A DNA stretch of 11,220 nucleotides. It comes from Gemmatimonadota bacterium. GTDB lineage: Bacteria > Gemmatimonadota > Gemmatimonadetes > Gemmatimonadales > GWC2-71-9. This document shows positions 1 through 11,220 of the stretch, piece by piece (position 1 is the stretch's first letter; each line of letters begins with the position of its first letter). Made by a program: the position numbers and the translations under genes. The notes under the pieces were generated by a model. That model was not told the origin of the DNA, made no database searches, and saw only the letters and a list, made by a program, of their open reading frames with translations. Location: assembly GCA_003221005.1 (NCBI GenBank), contig QHTZ01000010.1, positions 1-11,220 of the forward strand. Reading direction: 5' to 3'.

Positions 1-1274
1 GGCGCATGCTGCTGAACGAAGCCGAGACCCAAGCCGAGGCGCTCGTCACGTACCTGAAGGAAGGCGGGGGGATCAAGGAAATCGCCGTGGCCGGGAGCTA
101 CCGGCGCCGCCGCGAGACGATCGGCGATCTCGATATCCTCGCGACGTCGGCGGACAGCGCCAAGGTCATGCGCCGCTTCGTGAGCTATCCCGACGCGGCC
201 GAGGTGCTCTCCCAGGGCGACACGCGCTCGACCATCAAGCTGCGCGGCGGCCTGCAGGTGGACCTCCGCGCCATCGAGCCGGCGGCCTACGGCGCCGGGC
301 TTCTGTACTTCACGGGTTCCAAGGCGCACAACGTCGAGCTGCGGCAGCTCGCCCAGGGGAAGGACCTCAAGCTCAACGAGTATGGTCTCTTCCGGGGTAC
401 ACGCCGGGTGGCGGGAAAGACTGAAGAAGAGATCTACACCAAGCTGGGGCTCGAGTGGATCCCGCCCGAGCTGCGGGAGGCGCGCGGGGAGATCGCGCTG
501 GCGCGCGAGCACCGGCTACCGAAGCTGGTCGAGCTCAAGGACATCCGCGGCGACCTCCAGATGCACACCAACGCCACCGACGGCAAGGGCACGATCGACG
601 AAATGGCGGCCGCGGCGCGGCAGCTCGACTACGAGTACATCGCCATCACCGATCACTCGAAGCGCGTCACCATGGCGCTGGGGCTCGATCCCAAGCGGCT
701 GCGCGAGCAATGGAAGACGATCGACGAGTGGAACGCGACGGGGCGAGGGCTCACGATCCTGAAGAGCGTCGAGATGGATATCCTCGAGAGCGGCAAGCTC
801 GACCTGCCGGATGACGTGCTGGCGGAAGCGGACTACGTGGTGGCGACGATCCACTACGGGATCAACCAGACGGCGAAAGAGATCACCAGCCGGCTCGTCC
901 GCGCCGCCCAGCATCCGTGGGTGGACGCGATCGGTCACCCGACGGGGCGCATCCTGGGCAAACGCGAGCCCTACCCGCTCGACTTCGACACCTTGGCACA
1001 TGCCTGCGCTACGTCGGGCTGTCTGCTCGAGCTGAACGGTCACCCCGAGCGGATGGACCTCCCCGACACGCTCGCCGCCTCCGCGAAACAGCACGGCGTC
1101 CGACTCGTGCTGTCCACCGACAGTCACCAGCCGACGACGTTGCCGTTCATGACGTACGCGGTGGACCTGGCGCGGAGAGGGGGACTAGAAGCCGGTGATA
1201 TCCTGAACACCCGGCCCTTGGCCGAATTCAGGGCGGGACTGAAGAGGGCGGTAGGAGGCGGTAAGGGGCGGTGA
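1..1274 (+). CDS. polX: DNA polymerase X family / PHP 3'-5' exonuclease (PolX), 5'-truncated by the window edge
   Basis: PolX core motifs GSYRR, GDLDIL (DxD), QVDLR (third Asp), YFTGSKAHN, LNEYGLF and IPPELRE are followed by PHP-domain motifs DLQMHT, ITDHS, GHPTGR and STDSH. The frame is open to the left edge and the N-terminal HhH region is missing, so the gene starts upstream of the window. Confidence 0.95.
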   Translation, partial: RMLLNEAETQAEALVTYLKEGGGIKEIAVAGSYRRRRETIGDLDILATSADSAKVMRRFVSYPDAAEVLSQGDTRSTIKLRGGLQVDLRAIEPAAYGAGLLYFTGSKAHNVELRQLAQGKDLKLNEYGLFRGTRRVAGKTEEEIYTKLGLEWIPPELREARGEIALAREHRLPKLVELKDIRGDLQMHTNATDGKGTIDEMAAAARQLDYEYIAITDHSKRVTMALGLDPKRLREQWKTIDEWNATGRGLTILKSVEMDILESGKLDLPDDVLAEADYVVATIHYGINQTAKEITSRLVRAAQHPWVDAIGHPTGRILGKREPYPLDFDTLAHACATSGCLLELNGHPERMDLPDTLAASAKQHGVRLVLSTDSHQPTTLPFMTYAVDLARRGGLEAGDILNTRPLAEFRAGLKRAVGGGKGR

Positions 1275-1333
1275 GGGGCGGTAGACCGACCGCCTCTGTC
1301 CGCCCCTACCACCACATACCGCCCCTTACCGCC
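1247..1333. repeat. Inverted pair of 10-mer tandem arrays (consensus GGCGGTAAGG) forming a long hairpin at the polX/rnhB convergent junction; possible bidirectional terminator or 3'-end stabiliser
   Basis: Plus arm: ggcggtagga ggcggtaagg ggcggtgagg ggcggtaga (1247-1285). Minus arm read from 1333: ggcggtaagg ggcggtatgt ggtggtagg ggcggacaga ggcggtcgg. The stop codons of both genes lie inside the array. Confidence 0.85.
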
Positions 1334-1950
1334 AGCTCCAGCTGCACCACGGGCGCGAAGCTCCGCCGGTGATGCGCCGTCATCCCGTGCTCCGCGAGCG
1401 CCGCCAGGTGGTACGCCGTGCCGTAGCCCTTGTTGCTCGCCCAGGCGTAGGCGGGGTGGTGCGCGGCGAGGCGTTGCATGAGGCGATCGCGCACGGTCTT
1501 GGCGATGACGGAGGCGGCGGCGATGCAGTGGCAGTGAGCGTCGCCGTCCACGATCGCGTCGTGGGTCCATCCCAGCTCGGGACACGGCAGCCCGTCCACC
1601 AGCACGTGTTCGGGGCGCACCGCCAGGCGGCCCAGCGCACGCCGCATCGCGAGGATCGTCGCACGCCGGATGTTGAGCCGATCGATCTCGCGGACGCTCG
1701 CCGCGCCGACGCCGACCGCGAGGGCGCGTTGCCGTACCAGCCCGGCGAGCCGCAGTCGGACGCGCGGCGTGAGCAGCTTGGAATCGCGCAGCCCGCGGAT
1801 CACCTTGCAGTATGCCGGAAACACGACGGCCGCGGCCACCACTGGACCGGCCAGGGGACCGCGGCCTGCTTCGTCGACGCCGGCGACGACTTCCCCGCCT
1901 TCAGCCCAGAGCGCGCGTTCGCGCTCGAGTGAAGGACGGGGGCGTCTCAC
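1306..1950 (-). CDS. rnhB: Ribonuclease HII
   Basis: Motifs [56 protein letters not shown] and HRRSFAPV. The GTG start overlaps the rplS stop (GTGA), and rplS-rnhB is a common gene order. Confidence 0.96.
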
Positions 1951-2324
1951 GTTTCCGGTTGCTCCGTGGTGGGGACGACGCCCGCGCGCTTCTCACGAAT
2001 GCGCGCCGCCTTGCCGGCGAGCCGCCGCAGGAAGTAGAGCTTGGCGCGGCGCACGCGCCCCTTGCGCACCAGCTCGATCTCCGCGATGGAGGGACCGTGC
2101 AACGGGAAGATGCGCTCGACGCCGACCCCCGCTGAGATCTTGCGAACGGTGAAGGTTTCGTTGATGCCACCGCCGCGGCGGGCGATGCAGATGCCCTCGA
2201 ACGCCTGCAGGCGCTCCTTCTCGCCCTCGCGCACGCGCACCATGACGCGCACCGTGTCGCCCGGATCGAACGCGGGAATGTTGGTCTTCAAGCCTTCGCG
2301 CTCGACCTCTCTCAGCCGGTGCAT
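1947..2324 (-). CDS. rplS: 50S ribosomal protein L19
   Basis: Motifs [44 protein letters not shown] and [12 protein letters not shown]; lies directly downstream of trmD. Confidence 0.98.
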
Positions 2325-2328
2325 ACCC

Positions 2329-3021
2329 TCACCCTCGCTCTTCCGTTGCCTGTCTGTTCCATAGATCCGGCCGGCGCTCGCGCGTCAGGCGCTCGGCTTC
2401 CCGTGCGCGCCACTCGGCGATCTTCTCATGATCGCCACCCAACAATACCGCGGGGACGTCCATCCCGCGATAGCTCGGCGGCCGCGTGTAGCTCGGCGGA
2501 GCGAGCAACCCGTCGTAATGCGAATCGGTCGCGGCGGACTCGTGGTCGCCGAGCGCTCCCGGCAGGAGCCGCACCACCGCGTCGATCACGCACAGCGCTG
2601 CCGGTTCGCCGCCCGACAATACGAAGTCACCGATCGACAGCTCTTCAGCGCCGAGGCCGTCCGCGACCCGCTGGTCCACGTCCTTGTAGTGGCCGCACAG
2701 CAACGTCAGCTCCTTGGCGACCGCGAACCGGACCGCGTCGTCGTGGGTGAAGCGCCGCCCGCGAGCCGACAGCAGTACGATGGGCGGGCCCACACGGAGG
2801 TCGTCCACCGCCTCGAAGAAGGGTTCCGGCTTCAGCACCATCCCGGCGCCCCCGCCGTACGGGTAATCGTCTACGGTGTGGTGCTTGTCGTGCGTGTAGT
2901 CCCGCAACTGTACCACGCGGAAACGCACCAGCCCCGCCGCCGCCGCCCGACCCAGGATGCTCGTCGCGAACGGCGCGGTGAACAGCTCGGGGAACAGAGT
3001 CACCACGCTAATCGTGAGCAT
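2329..3021 (-). CDS. trmD: tRNA (guanine37-N1)-methyltransferase
   Basis: Motifs [52 protein letters not shown] and YTRP. The real start is placed at ATG 3021 ([12 protein letters not shown]), overlapping the 3' end of rimM, rather than at 3066. Confidence 0.96.
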
Positions 3022-3277
3022 CGGGCTCGTCCGTGGCGACGTAGTGGTCTCGCCATGCTTCGACAACGGCGCGGCCGCTCACTCCCTCGAACCCGAGCAG
3101 CCATTCGCGGTGATACGCCCGGCGGCGCGCGATGATCAGCGGCCCCGCAACCACGCGTCGCGCGGCGTCCACCACGAACAGGCGCGCGCGGGGAACGAAG
3201 ATCGCACCGGGGTTCTCGACCAGGGGGATCACCGCCACTTCCCCCTGCTGTCCGTGCGGCTTGCGCAGCCGCCCGAC
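3008..3277 (-). CDS. rimM: RimM N-terminal domain only (~89 aa, no PRC-barrel domain); start uncertain (GTC at 3277 overlapping the rpsP stop, or GTG at 3361 inside rpsP); possibly a pseudogene
   Basis: VGRLRKPHGQQGEVAV matches the RimM N-terminal motif and LLGFEGVSGRAVVEAWRD matches the end of the N-domain. It occupies the usual rpsP-rimM-trmD position. Confidence 0.8.
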   Translation of the reverse strand, partial: VGRLRKPHGQQGEVAVIPLVENPGAIFVPRARLFVVDAARRVVAGPLIIARRRAYHREWLLGFEGVSGRAVVEAWRDHYVATDEPDAHD

Positions 3278-3534
3278 TAGGCGGGCCGTTTGCCGAACAC
3301 CCCGGCCTTCTTGAGCAGCGAGCGCACCGTGTCCGTCGGCAGCGCGCCCTTCGCCAGCCACGCCTGCACCTGCTCGGTGTTCACCTTGATCACCGCCGGA
3401 TTGGCGCGCGGGTCGTAGTGGCCGAGCGTCGCCACGAACCGGCCGTCGCGCGGGGACTCCTGGTCGGCGACCACGATGCGGAAGTACCCCTGCCCCTTCC
3501 GCCCCACGCGCCGCAACCGAATCCGAGTTGCCAT
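3277..3534 (-). CDS. rpsP: 30S ribosomal protein S16
   Basis: Sequence MATRIRLRRVGRK..YFRIVVAD..SPRDGRFVATLGHYDP..WLAKGALPTDTVRSLL, with an AGGA Shine-Dalgarno-like sequence upstream of the ATG. Confidence 0.98.
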   Translation of the reverse strand: MATRIRLRRVGRKGQGYFRIVVADQESPRDGRFVATLGHYDPRANPAVIKVNTEQVQAWLAKGALPTDTVRSLLKKAGVFGKRPA

Positions 3535-3564
3535 CTGATCGTCCTACGTCCGCTGGAGGGCCAA

Positions 3565-3593
3565 AACCTACTCGGGGGGTGGGTCTAAACCAA
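3565..3593 (-). promoter_or_regulatory. Putative sigma70-type promoter for rpsP-rimM-trmD-rplS-rnhB
   Basis: Minus strand reads TTGGTT (3593-3588), a 17-nt spacer, then TAGGTT (3570-3565), ending 30 nt upstream of the rpsP ATG in the only sizeable gap of the minus-strand run. Confidence 0.5.
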
Positions 3594-3607
3594 GGGGCGA
3601 TGGGGCC

Positions 3608-4819
3608 TCACTTGAGCTTTACTCTCGGCAGGTGCTTCCATCCCGCCCAGCTCGCCGGCGCATCAACCAGTCGCACGCCCGGCAAGCGGCCCACCGCGAG
3701 CCGCGTGATCTCTGACCGCCTGACCGCCTGACCGCCCCACCGCCTCTTGCTCCACGCCCGCCTCAGCCCGCCAGCGAACCGATCCGCCGCGGCGGCGTTG
3801 TCCCACACGGAGTACCACACGACGGCGGCGGCGGCGCGCCCCAGGACCTCGTAGCGATCGCCGCCCCAGCCGGTCGCGAGCGTGGTCGCCTCACGCTCGT
3901 CGCCAAGGAACTGCTCGAGCAGCAGCCGGGTCTCGAATTCACCTAGATCGTCTTCGTAGCGCACCGTATCGAGCGCGGGACCGACAAACGCGAGCGCGAT
4001 CGGCCGGTCCCCCGCGGCGTACCGCTCGGTATGGAGGATCTGCTCCGTCGAGGTCGGCATCAGCGAACCGAACGGCTGCTTCCCCGGGTGCCCAGTCTCG
4101 AACCAGCGCACGAAGTCCGCGCCAGCGAGGTAGGGGAAGATAAGGCTCTCGCGCAGCCACTGCGGAGTGTTCGCGAACATCGGCATCTGGGCCTGCTGCC
4201 GGCTGACGGCGTCCCGCTGATCCCAGAAGCGTGGCAGGTCCTCGATCTTCTGCTCAGGCATGAGGACGAGGAGTCCCACGAGGGTTGCCTGACCCTCGAG
4301 GATCGCCTGGGCCGCCGTGCGGCGGTCGTTCTGCTGCCGCTGCTGGATGAGTGAGTTAAGGTCGATGTATTGGTGTTGGAGCGCATGCGCCAACTCGTGA
4401 GAGATAACGGTCCGCGCGAGCGCTGGATCAATGTCGGTCCGGATGTACAGGGCGCTCGAGTCGGCGTCATAGTACCCGGCAACCTGCTCGCCGAGGAGAT
4501 CGATCATTGTGCGCCGCAGGTCCACCGAATCGGGCAACAACCCGAAGAGCCGATACGCCGCTTGGACACCGTCAAGCTCGGCGGGGGGAAGGTCCTTGTC
4601 GAACTTGTGTATCACGTAGTCTCGGACGTCTGCCCGCGTGCGGCGCAACACGAGGGGGCGGTGCTTGAACCTGAGCCCGGTGGCGCGCTCGACGGCCGGC
4701 ATCATCTGGTCGACGGCCCGCTTCAACTCTGCGTCACTCTGAACCTGACGGGCGCGCTCGCTGCACGACATCGCCACCAGCAGCGCCGCAACGACTCCCC
4801 CCGCCCTCAACCGGTCCAC
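3608..4819 (-). CDS. Putative exported/lipoprotein zinc-metallopeptidase-like protein (HEXXH; resembles the Hvo_1808-like surface protein family)
   Basis: Signal-like N-terminus with an imperfect lipobox (RLRAGGVVAALLVAMS-C). Motifs VAGYYD, SHELAHALQHQ (HEXXH), AILEGQAT (possible third-ligand Glu), FPYLAGADFV, PTSTEQILH, DDLGE, GWGGDRY and WYSVWD. The start overlaps the upstream gene's 3' end. Confidence 0.75.
   Translation of the reverse strand: MDRLRAGGVVAALLVAMSCSERARQVQSDAELKRAVDQMMPAVERATGLRFKHRPLVLRRTRADVRDYVIHKFDKDLPPAELDGVQAAYRLFGLLPDSVDLRRTMIDLLGEQVAGYYDADSSALYIRTDIDPALARTVISHELAHALQHQYIDLNSLIQQRQQNDRRTAAQAILEGQATLVGLLVLMPEQKIEDLPRFWDQRDAVSRQQAQMPMFANTPQWLRESLIFPYLAGADFVRWFETGHPGKQPFGSLMPTSTEQILHTERYAAGDRPIALAFVGPALDTVRYEDDLGEFETRLLLEQFLGDEREATTLATGWGGDRYEVLGRAAAAVVWYSVWDNAAAADRFAGGLRRAWSKRRWGGQAVRRSEITRLAVGRLPGVRLVDAPASWAGWKHLPRVKLK
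3712..3743 (-). repeat. In-frame 8-mer tandem array (GCGGTGGG followed by GCGGTCAG x3 on the coding strand)
   Basis: Plus strand reads ctgaccgc ctgaccgc ctgaccgc cccaccgc; it encodes RWGGQAVRRS near the C-terminus. Confidence 0.75.
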
Positions 4820-5982
4820 TCGATCCCTTTCCCCACCGCCGCCCCCACGACCCGCGCGATGTCTTGTCCGCTGACGACGATCCCCTGGCGCTCGAGCTCC
4901 TGGCGCAGCAGCTGGTCGAGCTCGGCGCGCCGCTCGGCAAGGGGCGGCATGGGGCGGGAGGCGGCGGTCTGGGGCGGTACGGTGGCCGCACCCGTACCGC
5001 CTCCTGCCGCCCCTTGCCGCCCCTTGCCGCCCAGCATTCTCTCGATCTCCTCTCCAATCCGCTCCAGCACCGGAAAAATCTCCGCCATGAGGTCCTCAAC
5101 CGGCTCCCCCTCCCCGCGTGCAGGCTCGTGCGTCAACCCGCGCCGGATCATCGCGTCGACCTTGCGGCGCTCCCGGATCAAGCGCTCGAGCTCGGGCGAG
5201 ATACGCGCCGTCGCCTGCGCGTGCGCGCACGCCTCGTCCAGCACGTCGATCGCCTTGTCCGGGCGCGCACGATCGGGCACGAAGCGGTCGGTCAGGACGA
5301 TCGCGGCTTTGAGGGCGTCGTCGGTGAGCGCGACGGCATGGTGGCGCTCGAGCCGCGGCCGGCGCGCCACGAGGACTTCCCACGTCTGAATCGCGTCGAG
5401 CTCCTCCACCGCCACGGGCTGGAATCGGCGCTCGAGCGCCGGATCACCCCGGATCCAGCGGTCGTACTCTCCACCCGTGGTCGCGCCGACGATGCGGATG
5501 TCGCCGCGCACCAGGGCAGGCTTCAGCATGTTGGCGGCGTCCATCGCGGCGCCCATCGCAGTGCCCTGACCGATCAGGTTGTGCAGCTCATCCACGAACA
5601 GGATCAGCTCGGGGTCGGCCGCGAGCGCGCGCACCAGCCGGCGGACTCGCTCCTCGTATTGGCCGCGGAACGCGGTGCCCGCAAGTAAAGCGACGTGATC
5701 CAGCGCTACCAGCCGCGCGTCCTTGAGCGCGGGCGGCACGTCGCCAGTGGCGACGCGCTGCGCCAGTCCCTCGACGATCGCCGTCTTCCCCACGCCCGCC
5801 TTGCCGATGAGCGCGGGATTGTTCTTGCTCTGGCGTAGCAGGATGTCCACGACGCGGGCGATTTCGGCATCGCGGCAGCGCACCGGCTCGAGATCGCCGC
5901 GGCGCGCCTGCGCGGTGAGATCCACACCGACCCGCTCGAGCACGTCGCCCACATCGAACAGACCACCGAGCGGGTCGCTCAC
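4807..5982 (-). CDS. ClpA/B/C-like AAA+ ATPase with only the first nucleotide-binding module (D1 plus lid and a short middle region)
   Basis: Motifs GVDLT..ARRGDLEPV, KNNPALIGKAGVGKT (Walker A), AGTAFRGQYEER (pore loop), ILFVDELH (Walker B), DAANMLKPAL, GATT, DPALERRFQ (Arg finger) and PDKAIDVLDEACA. It ends at VSGQDIARVV. GTG start with GGAG 8 nt upstream. Confidence 0.9.
   Translation of the reverse strand: MSDPLGGLFDVGDVLERVGVDLTAQARRGDLEPVRCRDAEIARVVDILLRQSKNNPALIGKAGVGKTAIVEGLAQRVATGDVPPALKDARLVALDHVALLAGTAFRGQYEERVRRLVRALAADPELILFVDELHNLIGQGTAMGAAMDAANMLKPALVRGDIRIVGATTGGEYDRWIRGDPALERRFQPVAVEELDAIQTWEVLVARRPRLERHHAVALTDDALKAAIVLTDRFVPDRARPDKAIDVLDEACAHAQATARISPELERLIRERRKVDAMIRRGLTHEPARGEGEPVEDLMAEIFPVLERIGEEIERMLGGKGRQGAAGGGTGAATVPPQTAASRPMPPLAERRAELDQLLRQELERQGIVVSGQDIARVVGAAVGKGIEWTG
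4933..5031. repeat. 99-bp inverted 10-mer array hairpin lying in frame in the Clp-like gene
   Basis: Plus strand: ctcggcaagg ggcggcatgg ggcgggaggc ggcggtctgg ggcggtacgg [loop tggccgcac] ccgtaccgcc tcctgccgcc ccttgccgcc ccttgccgcc. The innermost 10-bp units pair perfectly. Confidence 0.85.
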
Positions 5983-5986
5983 GGCA

Positions 5987-6757
5987 TCAGCTCCCCCGCA
6001 GAAACTGCAGGTACCACTGGATGATCGCGTCGCCCGCCACGAACGTGACGCCTGCGCCCACGGCGAGGAATACCCCGAACGGCACGAGACGTTTGCGCTT
6101 CAGGGAGAGGGGCAGAAACACGACGCTGCCAGCCACGGCGCCGAGAAACACCGTGAGCAGCACGCCCTTCCAGCCGATGAACGAGCCGACCATGGCCATC
6201 ATCTTGATGTCACCGCCCCCCATCGCCTCCTCCCGGAACGCCCAACGTCCGGCCTGCGCCACGACGAACAGCAACGCGAAGCCCGCTACGGCACCGAGCA
6301 CCGCCTGCAGAAACCCGTCCACGCCTCCCCACAACGAGAGGGTGAGCCCGAGCACGAGCCCGCCCCAGGTGAACTCGTCGGGGATCAAGTAGTGCCGCGC
6401 GTCGGTGATTGCAATGCCGAGGAGGATGGTGCCGAGCAGCCCTGCGGCGAGCGCCTGGACCGTGGCTCCGTAGGCCAGCACCGCCGCAAGCCACAGCAGC
6501 CCCACGGCCGCCTCGACCACCGGGTACTGCACCGAGATGCGCGCACCGCAGTGACGACAGCGGCCCTTGAGCAGCAGCCAGGAGACGACCGGGATGTTGT
6601 CCCGCCAGGCGATGGGGCGCCGGCACTTTGGGCAGGACGAGGGCGGGCGCAGCAACGACTGCTCATGCGGCAGGCGGAGGATGCAGACGTTGAGGAAGCT
6701 TCCGAGACAGAGGCCGAGCAGAGCGGCCCCCGCGAGCGCCAGGGCGTCAGCGCCCAC
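5987..6757 (-). CDS. pilD: Type IV prepilin peptidase (A24)
   Basis: Motifs GSFLNVCILRLP, SSCPKC, DNIPVVSWLLLKGRCRHC..ISVQYPVVE, catalytic Asp in ITDARHYLIPD and AMGGGDIKMM, and VPFGVFL; several transmembrane segments. Confidence 0.95.
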   Translation of the reverse strand: MGADALALAGAALLGLCLGSFLNVCILRLPHEQSLLRPPSSCPKCRRPIAWRDNIPVVSWLLLKGRCRHCGARISVQYPVVEAAVGLLWLAAVLAYGATVQALAAGLLGTILLGIAITDARHYLIPDEFTWGGLVLGLTLSLWGGVDGFLQAVLGAVAGFALLFVVAQAGRWAFREEAMGGGDIKMMAMVGSFIGWKGVLLTVFLGAVAGSVVFLPLSLKRKRLVPFGVFLAVGAGVTFVAGDAIIQWYLQFLRGS

Positions 6758-7556
6758 GCAGGACCTCGTACAGCAGGATCCCGGCCGCCACCGCGACGTT
6801 GAGGGACTCCGCCCCCTGCGCCAGCGGAATCGCGACGCGCCGCGTGGACACGGCGTTCAAGTGCGGCCGGATCCCGGCCCCCTCGTTGCCCACGATCACG
6901 CCGATCGGCCCGGTATCCGAGCGCCCCCCTTCCCCCGTCCCTTTTCCCCCGCTCGCGAGCGCGCGGTGCAGCGGTGCACCGTCCGCCGCCGCCGCCCACA
7001 GGGTGAGCCCTCGCTTGCGCGCCCACGCGATGAACGCGCCATCGTCGAGCGCGACGACGGGGTGGCGAAACGTGGCGCCCATCGCGGCACGGAGCGCCTT
7101 GGGGCTGAGCACGTCGGCGCTGCCGCGCAACACGACGGTGCCCGCGGCACCAAGGGCGTGCGCCGTGCGGATCAGCGTGCCGACGTTACCCGGGTCCTGC
7201 ACGCCGTCGATGACCAGCGCCACGCCCCGGTCGCCGACCGGGAGCTCATCGGCAGTCCACTTGCGGGGCTCGACGACCGCGAGGATCCCCTGGGGCGTCT
7301 CCGTGTCGGCGAGCTGCTCGAGCGTGCGCGCCGAGACTTGCTCTACCGGGACGGCGTGGCGCTCGAGCTCGGCACGGAGCGCGCTGCCCCGCGCCGTGCG
7401 GTCGAGCTCGGGCGCGACCAGGGCGCCGCGGAACTTGAGCCCGGCGCCGAGCGCCTCCTCGATGAGCCGCACACCCTCCACGATGGCGAGGCCGCGACGG
7501 CCGCGCGCCTTGCGCCGTTGGAGATCGCGCAGCATCGCTTGCAAATTACTGGCTAT
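6747..7556 (-). CDS. TrmH/SpoU family RNA 2'-O-methyltransferase; start at ATA 7556, TTG 7544 or ATG 7535
   Basis: SPOUT motifs [51 protein letters not shown] and [15 protein letters not shown]. The ORF-track extension to 7985 is antisense to thiD and is not part of the gene. Confidence 0.92.
6923..6950 (-). repeat. 7-mer G-rich array in frame in the TrmH-family gene
   Basis: Coding strand reads gggggaa aagggac gggggaa ggggggc, closed by a 6-bp inverted repeat cgagcg/cgctcg (6918-6923 and 6950-6955). It encodes [12 protein letters not shown]. Confidence 0.55.
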
Positions 7557-7637
7557 GAGGACTCCCTCCCGCCGGCGGCGGCCGGCTTGTCTAAACGTCG
7601 CCGCCCCCTGCGTGTTTGCCAAGCGCAGGGACGCTCG

Positions 7638-8447
7638 GTGAGGATCGCCCTCACAATCGCCGGCTCCGACTCGGGCGGCGGCGCCGGGATCCAGGCCGAC
7701 CTCAAAACGTTTCATCAGTTCGGCGTCTTTGGCACGACCGTCCTCACGGCCGTGACTGCACAAAACACCCGCGGCGTGCAGGGGTGGCAGGCCGTCCCCG
7801 TCGACCTTGTCATCCGCCAACTCGACGCCGTCGCAGGCGATCTGCCGCCCCTGGCCATGAAGACCGGGATGCTTGCGTCGGGCGAGATCGTGGAGGCTGT
7901 CGCGGCTGGCATCGTGCGGCACCGCCTCCCGAACTACGTGCTCGACCCCGTCATGGTCGCCACGTCGGGAGACCGTCTGCTGCACGCCGACGCCGCACGC
8001 TTGATCGCTCAGCGGTTGGTACCGCTCGCCACGCTCGTCACCCCGAACCTCGACGAAGCGACGATCCTGCTCGAGGAGGAGGTGAGTACCGCCGATCAGA
8101 TGGCGCGCGCTGCAGCGGCGCTCGTGAAGCTGGGAGCACGCGCCGCGCTAGTGACGGGCGGACACCTGGCAGGGGACGAGGTCGTGGATGTGTTCGTCGC
8201 CGACGGCGCTACGCGGCGGTTCGCGCACCCGCGGCTCGACACGGCGTCCACCCACGGGACGGGGTGCACGCTCTCAGCGGCGGTGACGGCCGGGCTGGCG
8301 CACGGTCGGCCGCTGCCCGAGGCGGTTGCCGATGGCGTCGCCTTCGTGCAGCGCGCGCTGGCTGCGGCCCCGGGGCTCGGGAGCGGCCACGGGCCGCTCA
8401 ATCACTTCGTTCCGGCCCCGCCCCGGCCGCCGACGGAGGGGCTCTAG
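7638..8447 (+). CDS. thiD: Hydroxymethylpyrimidine/phosphomethylpyrimidine kinase
   Basis: GTG start, then [69 protein letters not shown] and [10 protein letters not shown]. Confidence 0.95.
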
Positions 8448-8450
8448 AAG

Positions 8451-8490
8451 GCGGTTTGGCAGTTTGGCGGTTTGGCGGTTAGGGGGTACG
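8451..8490 (+). repeat. 8-mer tandem array (GCGGTTTG/GCGGTTAG) directly after the thiD stop
   Basis: gcggtttg gcagtttg gcggtttg gcggttag, followed by a degenerate ggggtacg. Confidence 0.8.
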
Positions 8491-8573
8491 GCACGCATGG
8501 TTTCGTTTCGCGCGACTCGTATACCGCTCGCAGATTCGTTCGCGTGGCCTCCCACGAACGTGTGTCCCTGCGC

Positions 8574-9134
8574 GTGTCAGCCAGCCGGCGTTCCTTCCGG
8601 CTTCGCGGATACGACTATTCTCGGGCAGGGGCGTACTTCGTCACGATTCGCTCTTCGGACAGCGAGCCAGTATTCGGCAGGATGACCGGAGGCAAACTTC
8701 GGCCGAGCCCTATCGGGTTGTGTGCGCGAGACTGCTGGACCGAGATACCAAAGCATTTTCCGTTTGTTGAGCTAGACGTTTTCATCCTCATGCCGGATCA
8801 CCTGCATGGAATTGTTCAGATTGTGCACAGCGACCACAAACGGCCTGCGGTAACTGTAGGGGCACGACATGTCGTGCCCCTACAAGACGCCGCGACGCCG
8901 TCGTTCGGGTATTCCCAACCCCATTCTTTACCACGCGTCGTCGGGTCCTTCAAGGCCGCCGTGTCAAGGCGCGTAGGGCGCCCCATCTGGCAGCGCAACT
9001 ACCATGAGCGCATCATCCGGGACGAGGAGGAGCTCCGACAGATCCGGTGGTACATCAGAACCAATCCGCGGCGCTGGACGACCGAAGAGAGATCTTTAGC
9101 GGTCGGCGGATCGGGAGGGGCCAGCAATCTGTAG
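8574..9134 (+). mobile_element. REP-associated tyrosine transposase (RAYT; Y1_Tnp, IS200/IS605-superfamily HUH nuclease); start uncertain (GTG 8544, 8562 or 8574)
   Basis: N-terminal RRSFRLRGYDYSRAGAYFVTI, HUH motif MPDHLHGIV (8799-8807), SLPRVVGSFKAAVSR, WQRNYHERIIRDE and the catalytic Tyr in YIRTNP (9051). GTAG palindromes are associated with it, and it looks more AT-rich than the flanking genes by eye. Confidence 0.92.
8855..8884. repeat. GTAG-type REP: perfect 30-bp palindrome inside the RAYT CDS
   Basis: TGTAGGGGCACGACATGTCGTGCCCCTACA is its own reverse complement and translates as VGARHVVPLQ. Confidence 0.93.
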
Positions 9135-9141
9135 GGGCACG
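9129..9141 (+). repeat. REP half-site supplying the RAYT stop codon
   Basis: ctgtaggggcacg is identical to the left arm of the palindrome; the TAG at 9132-9134 lies within its GTAG. Confidence 0.8.
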
Positions 9142-9175
9142 GCTTGGGCTCAGGGGATTTGTGGTTCAACAATTC

Positions 9176-9205
9176 TGTAGGGGCACGACATGTCGTGCCC
9201 CTACA
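9176..9205. repeat. GTAG-type REP: second identical perfect 30-bp palindrome
   Basis: TGTAGGGGCACGACATGTCGTGCCCCTACA, identical to 8855-8884. Confidence 0.93.
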
Positions 9206-9232
9206 AACAAACGAAACGCACTGCCTCGGACA

Positions 9233-9311
9233 CCAGCCACCTAACCAACTGACCACCTAACCACCTGAGCGCCTGAGCACCCTACCGCCCACCGTCTACC
9301 CGCCTACCCGC
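9233..9311 (-). repeat. Degenerate 8-mer tandem array (~10 units) directly after the DUF5916 stop, inverted relative to 8451-8490
   Basis: Plus strand: ccagccac ctaaccaa ctgaccac ctaaccac ctgagcgc ctgagcac cctaccgc ccaccgt ctacccgc ctacccgc. The reverse-complement consensus is approximately GYGGTYAG. Confidence 0.8.
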
Positions 9312-11220
9312 CTAGGGATTCCACCAGTACGTCACCTTCACCAGGAAGATGTTGTCCGCGTGGGCGCTGAGCAGCCGGTTCACCGCATGCCCAAACTGAA
9401 AGTCGCCGCTGATCTCGTCATCCGAGCGCGTCTGCGTCCACACCAGATAGATCGCCGAACCCGGGGAGAACTCCCACCGCAGCACCGCGTTGCCGCGGAG
9501 CGAGCGGAGATTCGAGGCGGGGTCCTTGAAGCTCAGCGTGTCGGAGCTCGAGCCGCTTGCCTGCACGTGATATCGCCCGGTCGAGTCCCGGGAGATGTTG
9601 CCGACGTCCCGACCGTACACGTTGAAGTCGAAGCTACGCGGCCGGGCGAGCTCCTTGAACGCCCGGTAGCTGACCGCCGAGATCAGCGGCTGGGCGTACA
9701 GCTGGAGACTCAGTCGCGGCGTGAAGGTCCAGTCGAGCCGGATGGCCGCGGACACCTGCGTCTGCCGCAGGTCGCCGAACACGTACCGGTGGCCGTACGT
9801 GGCGGTGGCGAGACTGTCGGTGAAGGTGTCGATGTACTGCCTGGGATTGCTGTTCCAGCTGTAGTTGGGCTGTACCGAGAGTGAAACGCTCGGCGCGGGC
9901 CGCCATAAGACGTTCGGGCCGGTGTACCAGTTCGTGCCCCCGGCCGACTGGTACGTGCCGGCGGAGAGGCCCACGACCCAGGTCTTGCGACTATCCGAGC
10001 CCAGGCTTACGTCCGCCTGGTAGCCGGGCGGATTGAGCGCCAAGGGGCCGCCCCGCGTCAGCCGATCGTTCAGGGTCGAGGGGTTGTACGCCACGTCCCA
10101 GTTGATCGAGTAGTAATTGAGGAACAGCACACTCCCCTCGTGGAAGACGCCGGTCCACGTGACGTCGCCGTCCCAGTCGTAATTCCGGAAGACGGCGCCG
10201 AGCAGCTCGACGAACCGAAACACCCGCCCCGGCTTGTTCCAGTCGTGCCCGGCACCCGCGTGCATGTTGATGACGCCGCTGCGGAATTGAAACCCGATGT
10301 CGTCCACGTCGAACCGCGGCGCCAGGATGCCAAGCGCGGAGTTCGAGAACCAGTCGCCCTTCTGTTTGTTCAGGTACAGCCGCGCTCCCCATCCGGTCAG
10401 CGAGGTTGCGAGGGAGTCGACGTGGACGTGGAGGCCGTCGGGCCGCTGGAAGTAGTGGAGCGAGTTCTCCTGGAGATCGGTGATGCGGGCCGGCGAGCCG
10501 CTGTTGCGGGTGAGCCCGACCCAACCCGTCAGCACCCATTTCTTCTCGTGGTCGAGGAAGGTCCAGCCGTCGCTCCCGAGCGTCAGCGCTCGGGAGTTGA
10601 CGTCATCCCGCAGGCTCGGGTCCCGAAACGACCGCGCCGCGACGGTCGAAATGAACCCCAGACCCTGGCGCCCCTCGGGGAACTCCTTCTGCGCGCGGAA
10701 CACGCCGTAATACGCGAGCGGCTCCACTTCTTTATCGAACCGGATTCCCGACGTATCGATGCGCGCGGTCTCGCGCTCCGTCGCCGCAGACAGGATCCCC
10801 ACATTCCAGCTGCTGCCGGCCTTCCCGGTCAGCTTGACAGCGCCGAGGATGTGCGCGCCACCGGGGACGTCGGCGAAGCTCGAGTCGGAGTTGTCCCCCT
10901 TGGGCACCGTCCCCCCGGGCGGCCGCCCGATGCGGCGGCTATAGAAGAACTGGGGCTCTCCCCAGTTGAAGCCCCAGTAGTTGCGCCCGCCGCCGTGCCC
11001 GAAATCGAAGATCGACGACCCTTCGATGAAGAACGGCCGCTTCTCGGGGAAGAACGTCTCGACGTCACTCAGATTCACGACGGCGGGATCCACCTCGACC
11101 TGCCCGAAGTCGGGGTTGATCGACCCGCTGAGCGTGAGGTTGCTGCCGATCCCGACCTTGAGATCCGCGCCCGCGCCGGGGGAGTAGCGACCGTCGGCGC
11201 GGAAGGGGTCGTCCGCTACG
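9312..11220 (-). CDS. DUF5916-type outer-membrane beta-barrel protein (often fused to a CBM9-like domain), 5'-truncated by the window edge
   Basis: The frame is open to the right edge (..GADLKVGIGSNLTLSGSINPDFGQVEVDPAVVNLSDVETFFPEKRPFFIEG), with FYSRRIG, ILGAVKLTGK, alternating beta-strands, NAVLRWEF.PGS.IYLVW and an aromatic C-terminus (KVTYWWNP). Confidence 0.85.
   Translation of the reverse strand, partial: VADDPFRADGRYSPGAGADLKVGIGSNLTLSGSINPDFGQVEVDPAVVNLSDVETFFPEKRPFFIEGSSIFDFGHGGGRNYWGFNWGEPQFFYSRRIGRPPGGTVPKGDNSDSSFADVPGGAHILGAVKLTGKAGSSWNVGILSAATERETARIDTSGIRFDKEVEPLAYYGVFRAQKEFPEGRQGLGFISTVAARSFRDPSLRDDVNSRALTLGSDGWTFLDHEKKWVLTGWVGLTRNSGSPARITDLQENSLHYFQRPDGLHVHVDSLATSLTGWGARLYLNKQKGDWFSNSALGILAPRFDVDDIGFQFRSGVINMHAGAGHDWNKPGRVFRFVELLGAVFRNYDWDGDVTWTGVFHEGSVLFLNYYSINWDVAYNPSTLNDRLTRGGPLALNPPGYQADVSLGSDSRKTWVVGLSAGTYQSAGGTNWYTGPNVLWRPAPSVSLSVQPNYSWNSNPRQYIDTFTDSLATATYGHRYVFGDLRQTQVSAAIRLDWTFTPRLSLQLYAQPLISAVSYRAFKELARPRSFDFNVYGRDVGNISRDSTGRYHVQASGSSSDTLSFKDPASNLRSLRGNAVLRWEFSPGSAIYLVWTQTRSDDEISGDFQFGHAVNRLLSAHADNIFLVKVTYWWNP

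Follow-up and report, generated by a model that had tools for sequence, protein, structure and literature searches.

Four-copy G-rich tandem repeats dispersed through a Gemmatimonadales genome and the apparent turnover of their units at orthologous sites

The short tandem arrays in an 11,220-nt stretch of DNA (hereafter the window) from a soil Gemmatimonadales bacterium with a 2.79-Mb genome (G000) are a local sample of G-rich tracts, comprising about four copies of a 7-, 8- or 10-nt unit, that are found genome-wide. Comparison of orthologous loci suggests that these arrays keep their positions from genus to genus even as the unit, and in some cases the period, is exchanged. With little more than even confidence we favor the account that they are persistent four-unit tracts that are neither moved by a RAYT nor hopping, and that likely undergo concerted evolution.

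Short tandem arrays in the window and across the genome

A genome-wide TRF search, retaining arrays with at least 3 copies and a score of at least 40, recovered 144, 69 and 29 arrays of periods 7, 8 and 10 respectively (242 in total), as against 0-1, 0-1 and 0-4 (0-5 in total) in three codon-preserving shuffles; the dispersed family of short tandem arrays posited in a preliminary description of the window is thus real. The GGCGGY core held to define it has to be abandoned: by our own count GGCGG is present in about 49 of 296 TRF rows of period 7, 8 or 10, and the most frequent units are GGGGACG, AATGCGG and GGGGAAG. The copy number reported by TRF peaks at ~4 for periods 7 and 8 and at ~3.5 for period 10, followed by a drop, unlike periods 6, 9 and 12, where it decays steadily. 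Runs of 3, 4 and 5 units in G000 number 23, 37 and 1 for GGGGACG, and 7, 15 and 0 for GGGAAAC.

Five of the six arrays previously noted in the window were called in place by TRF (Table 1), while the sixth (6923-6950) is only a degenerate heptamer tract with no TRF call at score 30. Both 10-mer pairs form long hairpins that none of 200 shuffles matched in folding: the polX/rnhB hairpin (1240-1340) folds as single-stranded DNA at -35.1 kcal/mol (z -6.6), and the AAA+ linker hairpin (4925-5040) reaches -53.3 kcal/mol on one strand (z -6.9) and -54.4 kcal/mol on the other (z -7.3).

Table 1. Arrays and associated features in the window
Feature	Position	Strand	Copies	Basis	Host or context
G-rich arm of 10-mer hairpin, unit GGGCGGTARG	1246..1284	.	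4.0	TRF, period 10	contains polX/PHP stop codon 1272-1274 (ORF 3..1274; Pfam)
C-rich arm of polX/rnhB 10-mer hairpin	1289..1333	.	4.6	TRF, period 10	includes rnhB 3' end (ORF 1306..1950, minus; Pfam RNase_HII)
Single 8-mer array, GGCGGTCA on sense strand	3712..3745	-	4.2	TRF, period 8	in frame, close to C-terminus of M78-like peptidase (Pfam)
First arm (+ strand) of 10-mer AAA+ linker hairpin	4935..4977	.	4.3	TRF	pair 4935-5032 in frame within Gly/Pro-rich linker of ClpB-like AAA+ ATPase (gene 4807-5982, minus; Pfam, NCBIfam)
Second arm of 10-mer AAA+ linker hairpin	4985..5032	.	4.7	TRF	as above
Degenerate heptamer tract, GGGGAMG type on sense strand	6923..6950	-		by eye	variable loop of SpoU methyltransferase (Pfam SpoU_methylase)
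Single 8-mer array, GGCGGTTT	8450..8486 (TRF 8450-8480)	+	3.9	TRF, period 8	begins 3 nt past thiD stop codon 8445-8447 (frame 7638-8447; Pfam, NCBIfam)
RAYT-like ORF	8601-9134				between two arrays
REP hairpins	8856-8883 and 9177-9204				with RAYT-like ORF
Two 8-mer arrays next to each other, GGTGGTTA-type and GGCGGGTA-type on minus strand	9237..9314	-	3.8 (9237-9268) and 4.6 (9281-9314)	TRF, period 8	directly 3' of stop of DUF5916 outer-membrane gene (ORF end 9312; Pfam)

Pfam and ORF placement, along with linker alignments, bear out the earlier observation that arrays both terminate genes and occur within proteins with the frame kept open. Many tracts lie in frame within linkers and surface loops of essential or housekeeping proteins, being situated between Pfam domains in SucA (two sites), DnaX, LigD, NadE, DnaG, RsmB, MFS, CCG/Fer4 and FtsK proteins, and internally in MnmE (Pfam placement). 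Genome-wide, 90 of the 242 arrays lie inside a predicted gene with 150 nt or more to either end, a genic fraction that is approximate because the calls, from our own caller, are crude. In G001 the reading frame breaks at several arrays, possibly due to sequencing error.

It had also been proposed that transcripts read the G-rich strand first. This is true of all four single arrays in the window, but genome-wide it is a bias rather than a rule, with 101 single arrays having G on the sense strand and 42 having C (binomial p 8.7e-7; baseline sense GC skew +0.02). In the two window hairpins such an order is automatic, because a G-arm/C-arm pair reads alike on both strands. An inverted partner within 260 nt is found for 151 of 389 arrays, compared to 8 in a complement-only control, and the polarity of these paired arrays is G-first in 133 cases, C-first in 7 and of low skew in 11. 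We recognized 95 hairpin elements of the form G-arm/spacer/C-arm, in which the arms are 90% Watson-Crick paired. This complementarity is not universal: the DnaX site of G001 combines a 7-mer G-arm with an 8-mer C-arm.

Persistence and turnover at orthologous sites

We surveyed 16 arm sites of G000 in 5 congeners, i.e. 80 cells of which 78 could be scored, and found 39 with an array and 39 without, the remaining 2 being unavailable. Among the 39 arrays just 2 have an identical unit, with a single-base difference in 12, another unit in 19 and another period in 6. A genome effect is also seen: the MnmE, NadE and both SucA sites have GGGACG-type units in G000 and CGGGAAG or GGGGAAG in G005 and G002. 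Likewise, the AAA+ site has inverted arrays with other units in L001-L007, L011, L013, L017 and L022, and compensatory changes are seen there in 14 of the 31 predicted pairs. The SpoU loop contains similar G-rich heptamers in 3 of 11 aligned relatives; the M78 site, aligned with 14 relatives, displays no length change, with two copies of GCGGTCCG in L001 and mostly non-repetitive sequence in the others. Arrays that change unit in place at fixed orthologous sites are a poor fit to the spreading non-autonomous element that was initially envisaged.

Empty orthologous sites nevertheless do exist, as had been anticipated. The polX/rnhB site is array-free in L001, L002, L004 and L005 and has a GGCGGTGRAR hairpin in L003, a contrast that could equally have arisen by recent insertion. 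No arrays were seen between adjacent thiD and DUF5916 genes of relatives, where the gaps are 7-70 nt (7 nt in L013 and L020), and the array 3' of thiD is absent in the 10 relatives compared. In one congener, G004, no array was recovered in 184 kb or at any of the 16 surveyed sites, its MAG being rated 100% complete. In an MnmE tree of 23 genomes the taxa with arrays group in a single clade (support 100/99), with array-free G004 nested in the genus clade (support 99/97); this would imply one gain and one loss (in G004) of arrays, as judged from a single gene, with groups defined by the counted feature and relatives that are non-independent samples.

Proposed concerted evolution and competing explanations

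A tract appears to occupy its orthologous site for a long time while the unit is replaced as a block, and the two arms of a pair tend to remain complementary, even across intervening conserved host coding sequence. The most likely mechanism appears to be concerted evolution at the DNA level. It would combine slippage or template switching inside a repetitive arm, arm-to-arm correction upon pairing in any register and some exchange between arrays at separate loci, with selection sparing only those tracts that are tolerated at the protein and transcript level. The four-unit cap and the G-first polarity may together point to a structural constraint, in the form of either a G-quadruplex or a hairpin. 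Local slippage and arm correction alone do not explain a unit common to unrelated loci of one genome, and exchange between arrays would have to operate on 30-bp tracts that lack flanking homology. We identified neither an enzyme nor a pathway for such homogenization. MutS and MutL are present in all five genomes tested, including array-free G004, and RVT_1 was found in none of five genomes.

A possible but rather unlikely alternative is that the tracts are kept as G-quadruplexes or hairpins acting on transcription, on replication or on the stability of mRNA 3' ends, and that unit changes represent compensatory evolution. A quadruplex needs four G-tracts, which would account for the four-unit cap. 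The same case was made for the GGGNATC repeats on the strength of in vitro CD data, though that study found no regulatory role (Rehm et al., PMC4692102); in G000, several units, e.g. GGAATGC and GGTCGGAC, have GG-only tracts. Within 60 nt past stop codons the sense-strand orientation prevails (15 vs 6), and 38 of the 95 hairpins are located between co-directional or convergent genes, yet neither T-tail terminators at the arrays nor Rfam matches were detected. Similarly, the high stability of the hairpins, the co-variation of their arms and the conservation of sites across genera are all consistent with a structural role, but wobble-compatible arm mismatches show no sense excess (54 in the sense direction vs 50 in the antisense), giving no sign of RNA-level selection. 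Moreover, selection on structure does not need identical spacer bases in every unit, and the complete lack of arrays at the surveyed sites of G004 also speaks against it.

We regard as improbable the proposal that each G-arm/spacer/C-arm unit is a MITE-like mobile hairpin whose terminal inverted repeats are tandem arrays, which an unidentified enzyme would have inserted repeatedly and which selection would leave in a few tolerant linkers. Spacers within a unit family have no common sequence, and their lengths span 4-144 nt. Those of MnmE (73 nt, with the TKAD motif) and NadE (45 nt) consist of conserved host coding sequence, which array-free G004 retains, and therefore the pair is not one inserted unit. 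The many-member unit families per genome, such as the above four-unit GGGGACG runs, the empty sites of close relatives and the patchy presence across congeners favor insertion, as does the in-frame pattern reminiscent of Rickettsia palindromic elements. The occurrence of different unit families and periods at one site in different genomes might also be explained thus, because only a few tolerant linkers would keep repeated insertions; however, a site common to 39 of the 78 scored cells is hard to achieve via independent insertion. Loops with arrays are also no longer than array-free ones at the M78 and MnmE C-arm sites; by our own count the arrays at the MnmE loop match in length the non-array loops of outgroups, at 8-13 aa. 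No transposase tracking the arrays was found.

A RAYT-like ORF lies between two of the arrays, together with two REP hairpins (Table 1). The earlier suggestion that this RAYT (an HUH tyrosine transposase) possibly spreads the arrays as non-autonomous elements, by recognizing a GTAG-type foot also present in its REP, we now consider very improbable. Against NF047646 the ORF reaches 52.9 bits, short of the 80-bit cut-off, and GTAG is missing from most units. The match of GTAGGGGC in one 10-mer array (1302-1309, minus strand) is real but arises at the junction of two GGGGCGGTAG units, and GTAGGGGC has 71 occurrences in G000 vs ~226 expected (our own base-composition estimate). While one REP (C118 35815-35842) is only 7 nt from an array, 9 of the 11 GTAG-footed REP hairpins of G000 are more than 370 nt from the nearest one, and these 11 compare with 389 arrays. 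The RAYT is present in one copy in G000, has matches in none of 6 congeners and in 5 of 41 genomes overall, and does not occur at any of the 80 syntenic loci, of which many have arrays. Equal abundance of arrays in RAYT-free relatives had been named as a check on this link, and array density per 10 kb is 0.90 in RAYT-less G001, as compared with 0.87 in G000 and with 0.40 in G005, which also lacks the RAYT; the proposed tie to the neighboring RAYT hence fails.

Finally, it is barely credible that the repeats merely reflect selection for flexible Gly/Arg-rich and Pro-rich protein linkers, for although the intragenic tracts do lie in linkers and encode G/R/E-rich followed by P/S-rich peptides, these are not periodic at unit length because none of the three unit lengths (7, 8 and 10 nt) is divisible by three, identical units also occur intergenically and past stop codons, the DNA periodicity rather than the peptide is conserved between genomes, and just 0, 3 and 0 arrays of periods 6, 9 and 12 have an inverted partner.

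Comparison with known repeat systems

Rickettsia palindromic elements and other in-frame MITEs have a conserved full-length consensus, each being one inserted unit; they are hairpin-capable and tolerated in frame in housekeeping genes, where they add peptide segments. The G000 elements, in contrast, share only their four-unit arms, with the middle being unrelated or host sequence. Like REP/REPIN-RAYT systems, G000 has short hairpin-forming extragenic repeats, together with a RAYT-like gene and REPs, but its arrays are tandem, far outnumber the REPs, have no conserved GTAG foot, do not cluster with REPs and are present in RAYT-free genomes. The cyanobacterial STRRs are tandem heptamers dispersed genome-wide whose units are not known to be G-rich; according to the title of a 1997 paper by Vioque they reportedly occur inside a functional RNase P RNA gene. 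At the level of a shallow comparison they resemble the G000 tracts in being dispersed tandem heptamers and differ in phylum and units.

Dispersed tandem heptamers are likewise seen in the TAACTGA repeats of Beggiatoaceae, cyanobacteria and Bacteroidetes, which are described as mostly intergenic sets of 2-6, AT-rich, just upstream of start codons, with a single inverted set (MacGregor 2015, PMC4679880); the G000 units are instead G-rich, past stop codons or in linkers, and often in inverted pairs.

The closest known case is found in Xanthomonas and Nostoc, whose G-rich heptamer repeats of four units have their counterpart in the G000 tracts. These GGGNATC or GGGGA(C/T)T heptamers, as presented in the original report, have a marked four-unit preference, occur chromosome-wide in about 180 copies per genome and form 70-75 pairs in "convergent" orientation; gene context is retained for 83% of repeats between two Xanthomonas species, with length and sequence varying (Rehm et al. 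2015, PLoS One, PMC4692102). Given that four-unit heptamers, convergent pairs and a post-stop position were already known, the term "undescribed" used previously for the arrays was too strong. Common to both systems are the G-richness, the four-unit preference, the chromosome-wide distribution and the "convergent" arrangement, which equals G-arm first. On the other hand, G000 has many unit families and three periods rather than one consensus; an approximate 90 of 242 arrays deep in predicted genes, as opposed to 7-11% intragenic in Xanthomonas; and almost no long arrays, while those of Xanthomonas reach 26 units. Further distinguishing G000 and its relatives are arms that can bracket conserved coding segments, the replacement of unit and period at fixed sites, and an array-free congener.

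The window arrays and a genome-wide class

The source genome (G000) is a 2.79-Mb assembly of 141 contigs with 69% GC, of which the window is one entire contig (C130). The gene order of the window is kept in relatives recruited with the AAA+ protein, which are Gemmatimonadales metagenome-assembled genomes. The preliminary description had reported six short tandem arrays in this window; five of these were called by TRF at the coordinates given there, while the sixth (6923-6950), without a TRF call, is a run of G-rich heptamers in degenerate form, placed in a variable loop of the SpoU methyltransferase. Both 10-mer pairs are long hairpins in DNA folding (z about -6.6 to -7.3), and the one in the AAA+ gene fills a variable Gly/Pro-rich linker between the conserved EIE(K/R)MLGG and RRAELD motifs.

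Genes and tandem arrays of the window
Feature	Coordinates	Strand	Basis
polX/PHP	3-1274	+	Pfam/NCBIfam
rnhB, rplS, trmD, rimM, rpsP	1306-3534	-	Pfam/NCBIfam
M78-like peptidase	3608-4819	-	Pfam/NCBIfam
ClpB-like AAA+ protein	4807-5982	-	Pfam/NCBIfam
Prepilin peptidase	5987-6757	-	Pfam/NCBIfam
SpoU methyltransferase	about 6747-7560	-	Pfam/NCBIfam
thiD	7638-8447	+	Pfam/NCBIfam
RAYT-like ORF	8601-9134	+	Pfam/NCBIfam
DUF5916 outer-membrane protein	9312-11219	-	Pfam/NCBIfam
Hairpin array, polX/rnhB	1246-1333		TRF
Single array, M78	3712-3745		TRF
Hairpin array, AAA+ linker	4935-5032		TRF
Degenerate tract, SpoU	6923-6950		
Single array after thiD	8450-8486		TRF
Adjoining pair after DUF5916	9237-9314		TRF

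The window holds a few members of a large genome-wide class. TRF (at least 3 copies, score of at least 40, overlapping rows merged) recovered 144, 69 and 29 arrays of period 7, 8 and 10 in the source genome, against 0-1, 0-1 and 0-4 in three codon-preserving shuffles, in which codons were permuted within predicted genes and bases between genes; with the same thresholds, periods 6, 9 and 12 gave 28, 31 and 15 arrays. The dispersed short-array family that had been proposed from the window is confirmed and extended. The units are diverse, and include GGGGACG, AATGCGG, GGGGAAG, GGGAAAC and GGGATGC, as well as GGACGGTC, GGACGGAA, GGGTAGAC, GGCGGTCA and GGGGCGGTAA; several contain GG tracts only, with no longer G-runs. 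The GGCGGY core proposed earlier holds for most 10-mers (at least 28 of 35 TRF rows by our own count) but for few 8-mers (about 15 of 89) and 7-mers (6 of 172).

The copy number has a ceiling of about four units: GGGGACG occurs in 23, 37 and 1 runs of 3, 4 and 5 units, GGGGAAG in 14, 17 and 0, and GGGAAAC in 7, 15 and 0. The TRF copy histograms likewise climb to about 4 (periods 7 and 8) or 3.5 (period 10) and then drop, whereas those of the triplet periods decay steadily.

Paired arms, strand polarity and host genes

With the threshold relaxed, the period-7/8/10 arrays number 389, and 151 of them had a reverse-complement partner at most 260 nt away, as compared to 8 arrays in a complement-only control; among arrays of period 6, 9 and 12, 0, 3 and 0 had an inverted partner. 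Merging the paired arrays leaves 95 hairpin elements, of which 55 are built of heptamers, 29 of octamers and 11 of decamers, with a median length of 84 nt, a median spacer of 25 nt and arms that are 90% Watson-Crick paired. They display a pronounced polarity: 133 of the 151 are G-first, i.e. with the G-rich arm 5', followed by the spacer and the C-rich complementary arm, 7 are C-first and 11 have low skew. Since a G-first pair reads G-first on either strand, the earlier observation that the host reads the G-rich strand first is uninformative for the two window hairpins; it survives as a bias among single arrays genome-wide, where the G-rich strand is the sense strand in 101 cases and the C-rich strand in 42 (p 8.7e-7; baseline skew +0.02). 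The total element lengths of 48 genic hairpins, modulo 3, are distributed 15/15/18, a result that is uninformative because the boundaries are those of the arm alignment rather than of an insertion.

Three RNA-level roles were considered and rejected. Wobble-compatible mismatches in the hairpin arms are found in 54 sense and 50 antisense cases, which gives no sign of selection on the hairpins as RNA. A terminator function finds no support, given the lack of T-tails at the arrays in the window, where the four terminator-like hits all lie elsewhere and are at shuffle level (mean 4.7). A search of the window against Rfam 15 gave zero matches to known RNA families at the gathering score.

Our own crude gene caller predicted 2,614 genes covering 90.7% of the genome. 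By these crude calls, 93 of 242 arrays fall between genes, roughly four times what the about 9% intergenic share of the genome would give, and 90 of 242 are deep intragenic, with 150 nt or more of the predicted gene on either side. Among arrays that lie up to 60 nt past a stop codon, sense-G cases number 15 versus 6. Pfam searches with 16 host ORFs placed hairpins between domains of SucA (two sites), DnaX, LigD, NadE, DnaG, RsmB, a CCG/Fer4 protein and FtsK, in the central loop of an MFS transporter, and inside MnmE; four of the 16 (L108, L112, L119 and, less so, L113) have no Pfam domain upstream of the element, making its internal position less certain. In two ORFs the hairpin is the sole linker of two modules. 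One, of 767 aa (L114; C61 22137-24440, hairpin at nt 1195-1275), joins an aspartokinase (AA_kinase+ACT) to an M20 peptidase, and the other, of 809 aa (L115; C120 54345-56774, hairpin at nt 1484-1585), joins two aldehyde-dehydrogenase modules; both look like fused proteins. Annotators should be aware that DNA repeats yield linker peptides in these proteomes as by-products.

Persistence, turnover and loss at orthologous sites

The comparison of orthologous sites is the most informative result. In the AAA+ linker, inverted decamer arrays occupy the same position with other units in relatives (loci L001-L007, L011, L013, L017 and L022), examples being GGCGGCAGNN, GGGGAGGTNN, GGCGGTGGAA, GACGGGGAAA and CCGTCCTCGA, and are absent from L008 and L010; in a 10-sequence alignment, pairing at this site is kept via two-sided changes in 14 of 31 predicted pairs. 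L001, L002, L004 and L005 have no array at the polX/rnhB site, their convergent stops being 7-28 nt apart, and the hairpin at this site in L003 has the unit GGCGGTGRAR, identical to that at the AAA+ site of the same locus. The M78 array involves zero length change against 14 relatives. No arrays were found downstream of thiD or DUF5916 in relatives, which have gaps of 7-70 nt or other genes there. Another locus, L006, carries a short inverted GGGGAAG / CCCCTTCCCC tract directly 3' of the M78 stop, where the window has none, as one more instance of patchy presence at gene ends.

We then surveyed 16 arm sites in seven other genes of the source genome across five congeners. The resulting 80 cells comprise 39 with an array, 39 without and 2 not available. 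In the 39 array cells the unit is shared in only 2, differs by one base in 12, is another unit in 19 and has another period in 6, and by our own reading of this table about 13 of 15 paired cases have complementary arms. At MnmE, NadE and both SucA sites the unit follows the genome: it is of the GGGACG type in the source genome, and CGGGAAG or GGGGAAG in the congeners G002 and G005. The loop between the arms is 73 nt long in MnmE, where it encodes the TKAD G4 motif, and 45 nt long in NadE; both loops consist of host coding sequence that is conserved and is present also in the array-free congener G004; hence the arms bracket host DNA and are not one inserted unit.

The loop after the MnmE TKAD motif was compared across 23 genomes. 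It bears C-rich 7-mer arrays in the genus labelled g1 and C-rich 8-mer arrays in G009, G015 and G016, with none in more distant genomes, and is 8-13 aa long with or without an array. The MnmE tree unites the array-bearing taxa in a single clade (100/99) and places the array-free G004 within that of the genus (99/97), so that one gain and one loss are needed on this single-gene tree, whose groups are defined by the very feature counted. The MnmE branch of G004 is long (0.39 versus 0.13 for the source genome).

G004 (loci L092-L096 and L158-L165), which is rated 100% complete and is similar in GC content (68.3%), lacks period-7/8/10 arrays throughout 184 kb and at all 16 orthologous sites. Other congeners have 0.35 (G003), 0.40 (G005) and 0.90 (G001) arrays per 10 kb, against 0.87 in the source genome; the value of 3.0 for G002, over 40 kb, is biased by contigs chosen for orthologues of array-bearing genes. 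Across syntenic loci the density per 10 kb falls from 0.98 for near relatives to 0.53 for relatives at the level of Gemmatimonadaceae and 0.10 for other phyla. Locus L030, of a MAG labelled Gemmatimonas aurantiaca, carries 3 heptamer arrays in 13 kb. In G001, which has long contigs and is 83% complete, the DnaX, LigD, DnaG, SucA and MFS matches are split into two frames at or near arrays; these breaks may reflect either true frameshifts or sequencing errors in homopolymeric runs of G. G004 offers a natural contrast for finding what makes or keeps the arrays, and the comparison of array-rich genomes with this array-free congener renders the question of origin and maintenance directly testable.

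Candidate mechanisms and known repeat systems

The tracts constitute a DNA-level class, with non-triplet periods and a presence in intergenic DNA too. Their copy number is capped at four units, their polarity is G-first and their arms remain complementary across host sequence; at persistent sites the units are replaced in blocks, the genome has an effect on the unit, and there is one lineage-wide loss. The explanation that we favour, by inference, is that they undergo concerted evolution: slippage or template switching would act within tracts, arm-to-arm correction within pairs, and some exchange of units between loci, the weakest step of the scheme, while selection would filter which tracts remain.

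A bolder proposal, which we regard as unlikely, is that Gemmatimonadales possess a genome-wide process by which about 400 four-unit tracts are kept perfect and rewritten as blocks, with changes of unit sequence and even of period at fixed sites, complementarity of distant arms across conserved coding DNA, and a genome-specific unit at unrelated loci. If so, it would reach into essential genes such as dnaX, dnaG, mnmE, ligD and nadE. Such a templated or conversion-based "overwriting" would differ from transposition, from RAYT/REP activity, from diversification by reverse transcriptase and from simple slippage, and its loss in G004 would have removed every array there.

Loss of mismatch repair as the cause of array richness was rejected, as MutS (TIGR01070) and MutL (TIGR00585) score above their cut-offs in all five genomes searched, including G004. 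Templating by a reverse transcriptase, retron or telomerase-like enzyme was rejected on the absence of RVT_1 (PF00078), the one polymerase family sought, from 5 of 5 genomes, while control genomes gave matches. A MITE or palindromic insertion element would be a single inserted unit with a conserved interior, terminal inverted repeats and a target-site duplication, whereas the spacers within a family in the source genome are unrelated, those of MnmE and NadE are host coding sequence, and there is no length gain at the MnmE C-arm or the M78 site.

The preliminary description had further suggested that the arrays might be spread by the adjacent RAYT. This ORF scores 52.9 bits against NF047646 (REP-associated tyrosine transposase; cut-off 80) and only E 0.69 against Pfam Y1_Tnp. 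It is single-copy in the source genome; RAYT matches occur in 5 of 41 genomes, and none was found in the 6 congeners or in any of 80 syntenic loci. Array density does not track RAYT presence, being just as high in the RAYT-less G001 as in the source genome, and this tempting but wrong link is therefore removed. The source genome holds 11 GTAGGGGC...GCCCCTAC REP hairpins, and the GTAG/CTAC foot is confined to these true REPs, the arrays being tandem units of many sequences. Nine of the 11 are more than 370 nt from any array; the other two lie within 80 nt of one, an adjacency that we judged unconvincing.

The RAYT region has peculiarities of its own. A perfect REP hairpin (GTAGGGGCACGACATGTCGTGCCCCTAC) at 8856-8883 lies in frame in the RAYT-like gene, just after its HUH motif (MPDHLHGIV), and encodes TVGARHVVPLQ; its presence there accounts for the division of the family match into two parts. 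The homologue in G017 has two copies of a different hairpin (TGTGGGGCCTTGATTAATCAAGGCCCCACA) in the same place (L083, nt 220 and 319), and four other homologues have none. A half REP (CTGTAGGGGCACGGCTTGGGC) at 9131-9150 overlaps the RAYT stop, about 30 nt upstream of a full REP at 9177-9204. The RAYT cassette (8448-9311) is specific to the source genome: thiD and DUF5916 are separated by 7 nt in L013 and L020, and by only a REP hairpin in L017. A G-rich array flanks the cassette on its left side and C-rich arrays on its right, in the usual G-first polarity but with a spacer of about 750 nt. That the arrays at 8450-8486 and 9237-9314 are one hairpin split by RAYT insertion is speculation, which we set aside; their units are only about 6/8 alike by eye, and no relative compared has a hairpin at this position.

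Literature searches returned nothing relevant on such repeats in Gemmatimonadetes and, for GGGAATC, unrelated primer matches only, among the matches listed. The AT-rich TAACTGA repeats upstream of start codons, as presented in MacGregor 2015 (PMC4679880), are less similar to the present arrays than the GGGNATC heptamer repeats of Rehm et al. 2015 (PMC4692102). The latter are described there as preferring four units, forming 70-75 convergent pairs, keeping their positions in 83% of cases from one Xanthomonas species to another, forming quadruplexes in vitro and having no known function; 89-93% are intergenic, close after the upstream gene, and 7-11% intragenic. The source genome shares with these, as far as that account goes, the over-represented tandem G-rich units (6-9 nt, period 10 being outside the published range), the four-unit preference and the convergent, G-first nearby pairs. 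It differs from that account in its unit diversity, additional periods, near lack of long arrays and high in-frame intragenic share, the deep-intragenic fraction alone being far above the published one, and also in the turnover of unit and period at fixed sites and the existence of an array-free congener. The array class is a variant of a known, still unexplained bacterial repeat type with new features, and extends the four-unit G-rich repeats of Xanthomonas and Nostoc, whose function is unknown, to another phylum. It does so in a form that is easier to reason about, with many unit families coexisting in one genome, tracts in frame within essential proteins, sites that are stable across genera despite unit turnover, and a natural knockout.
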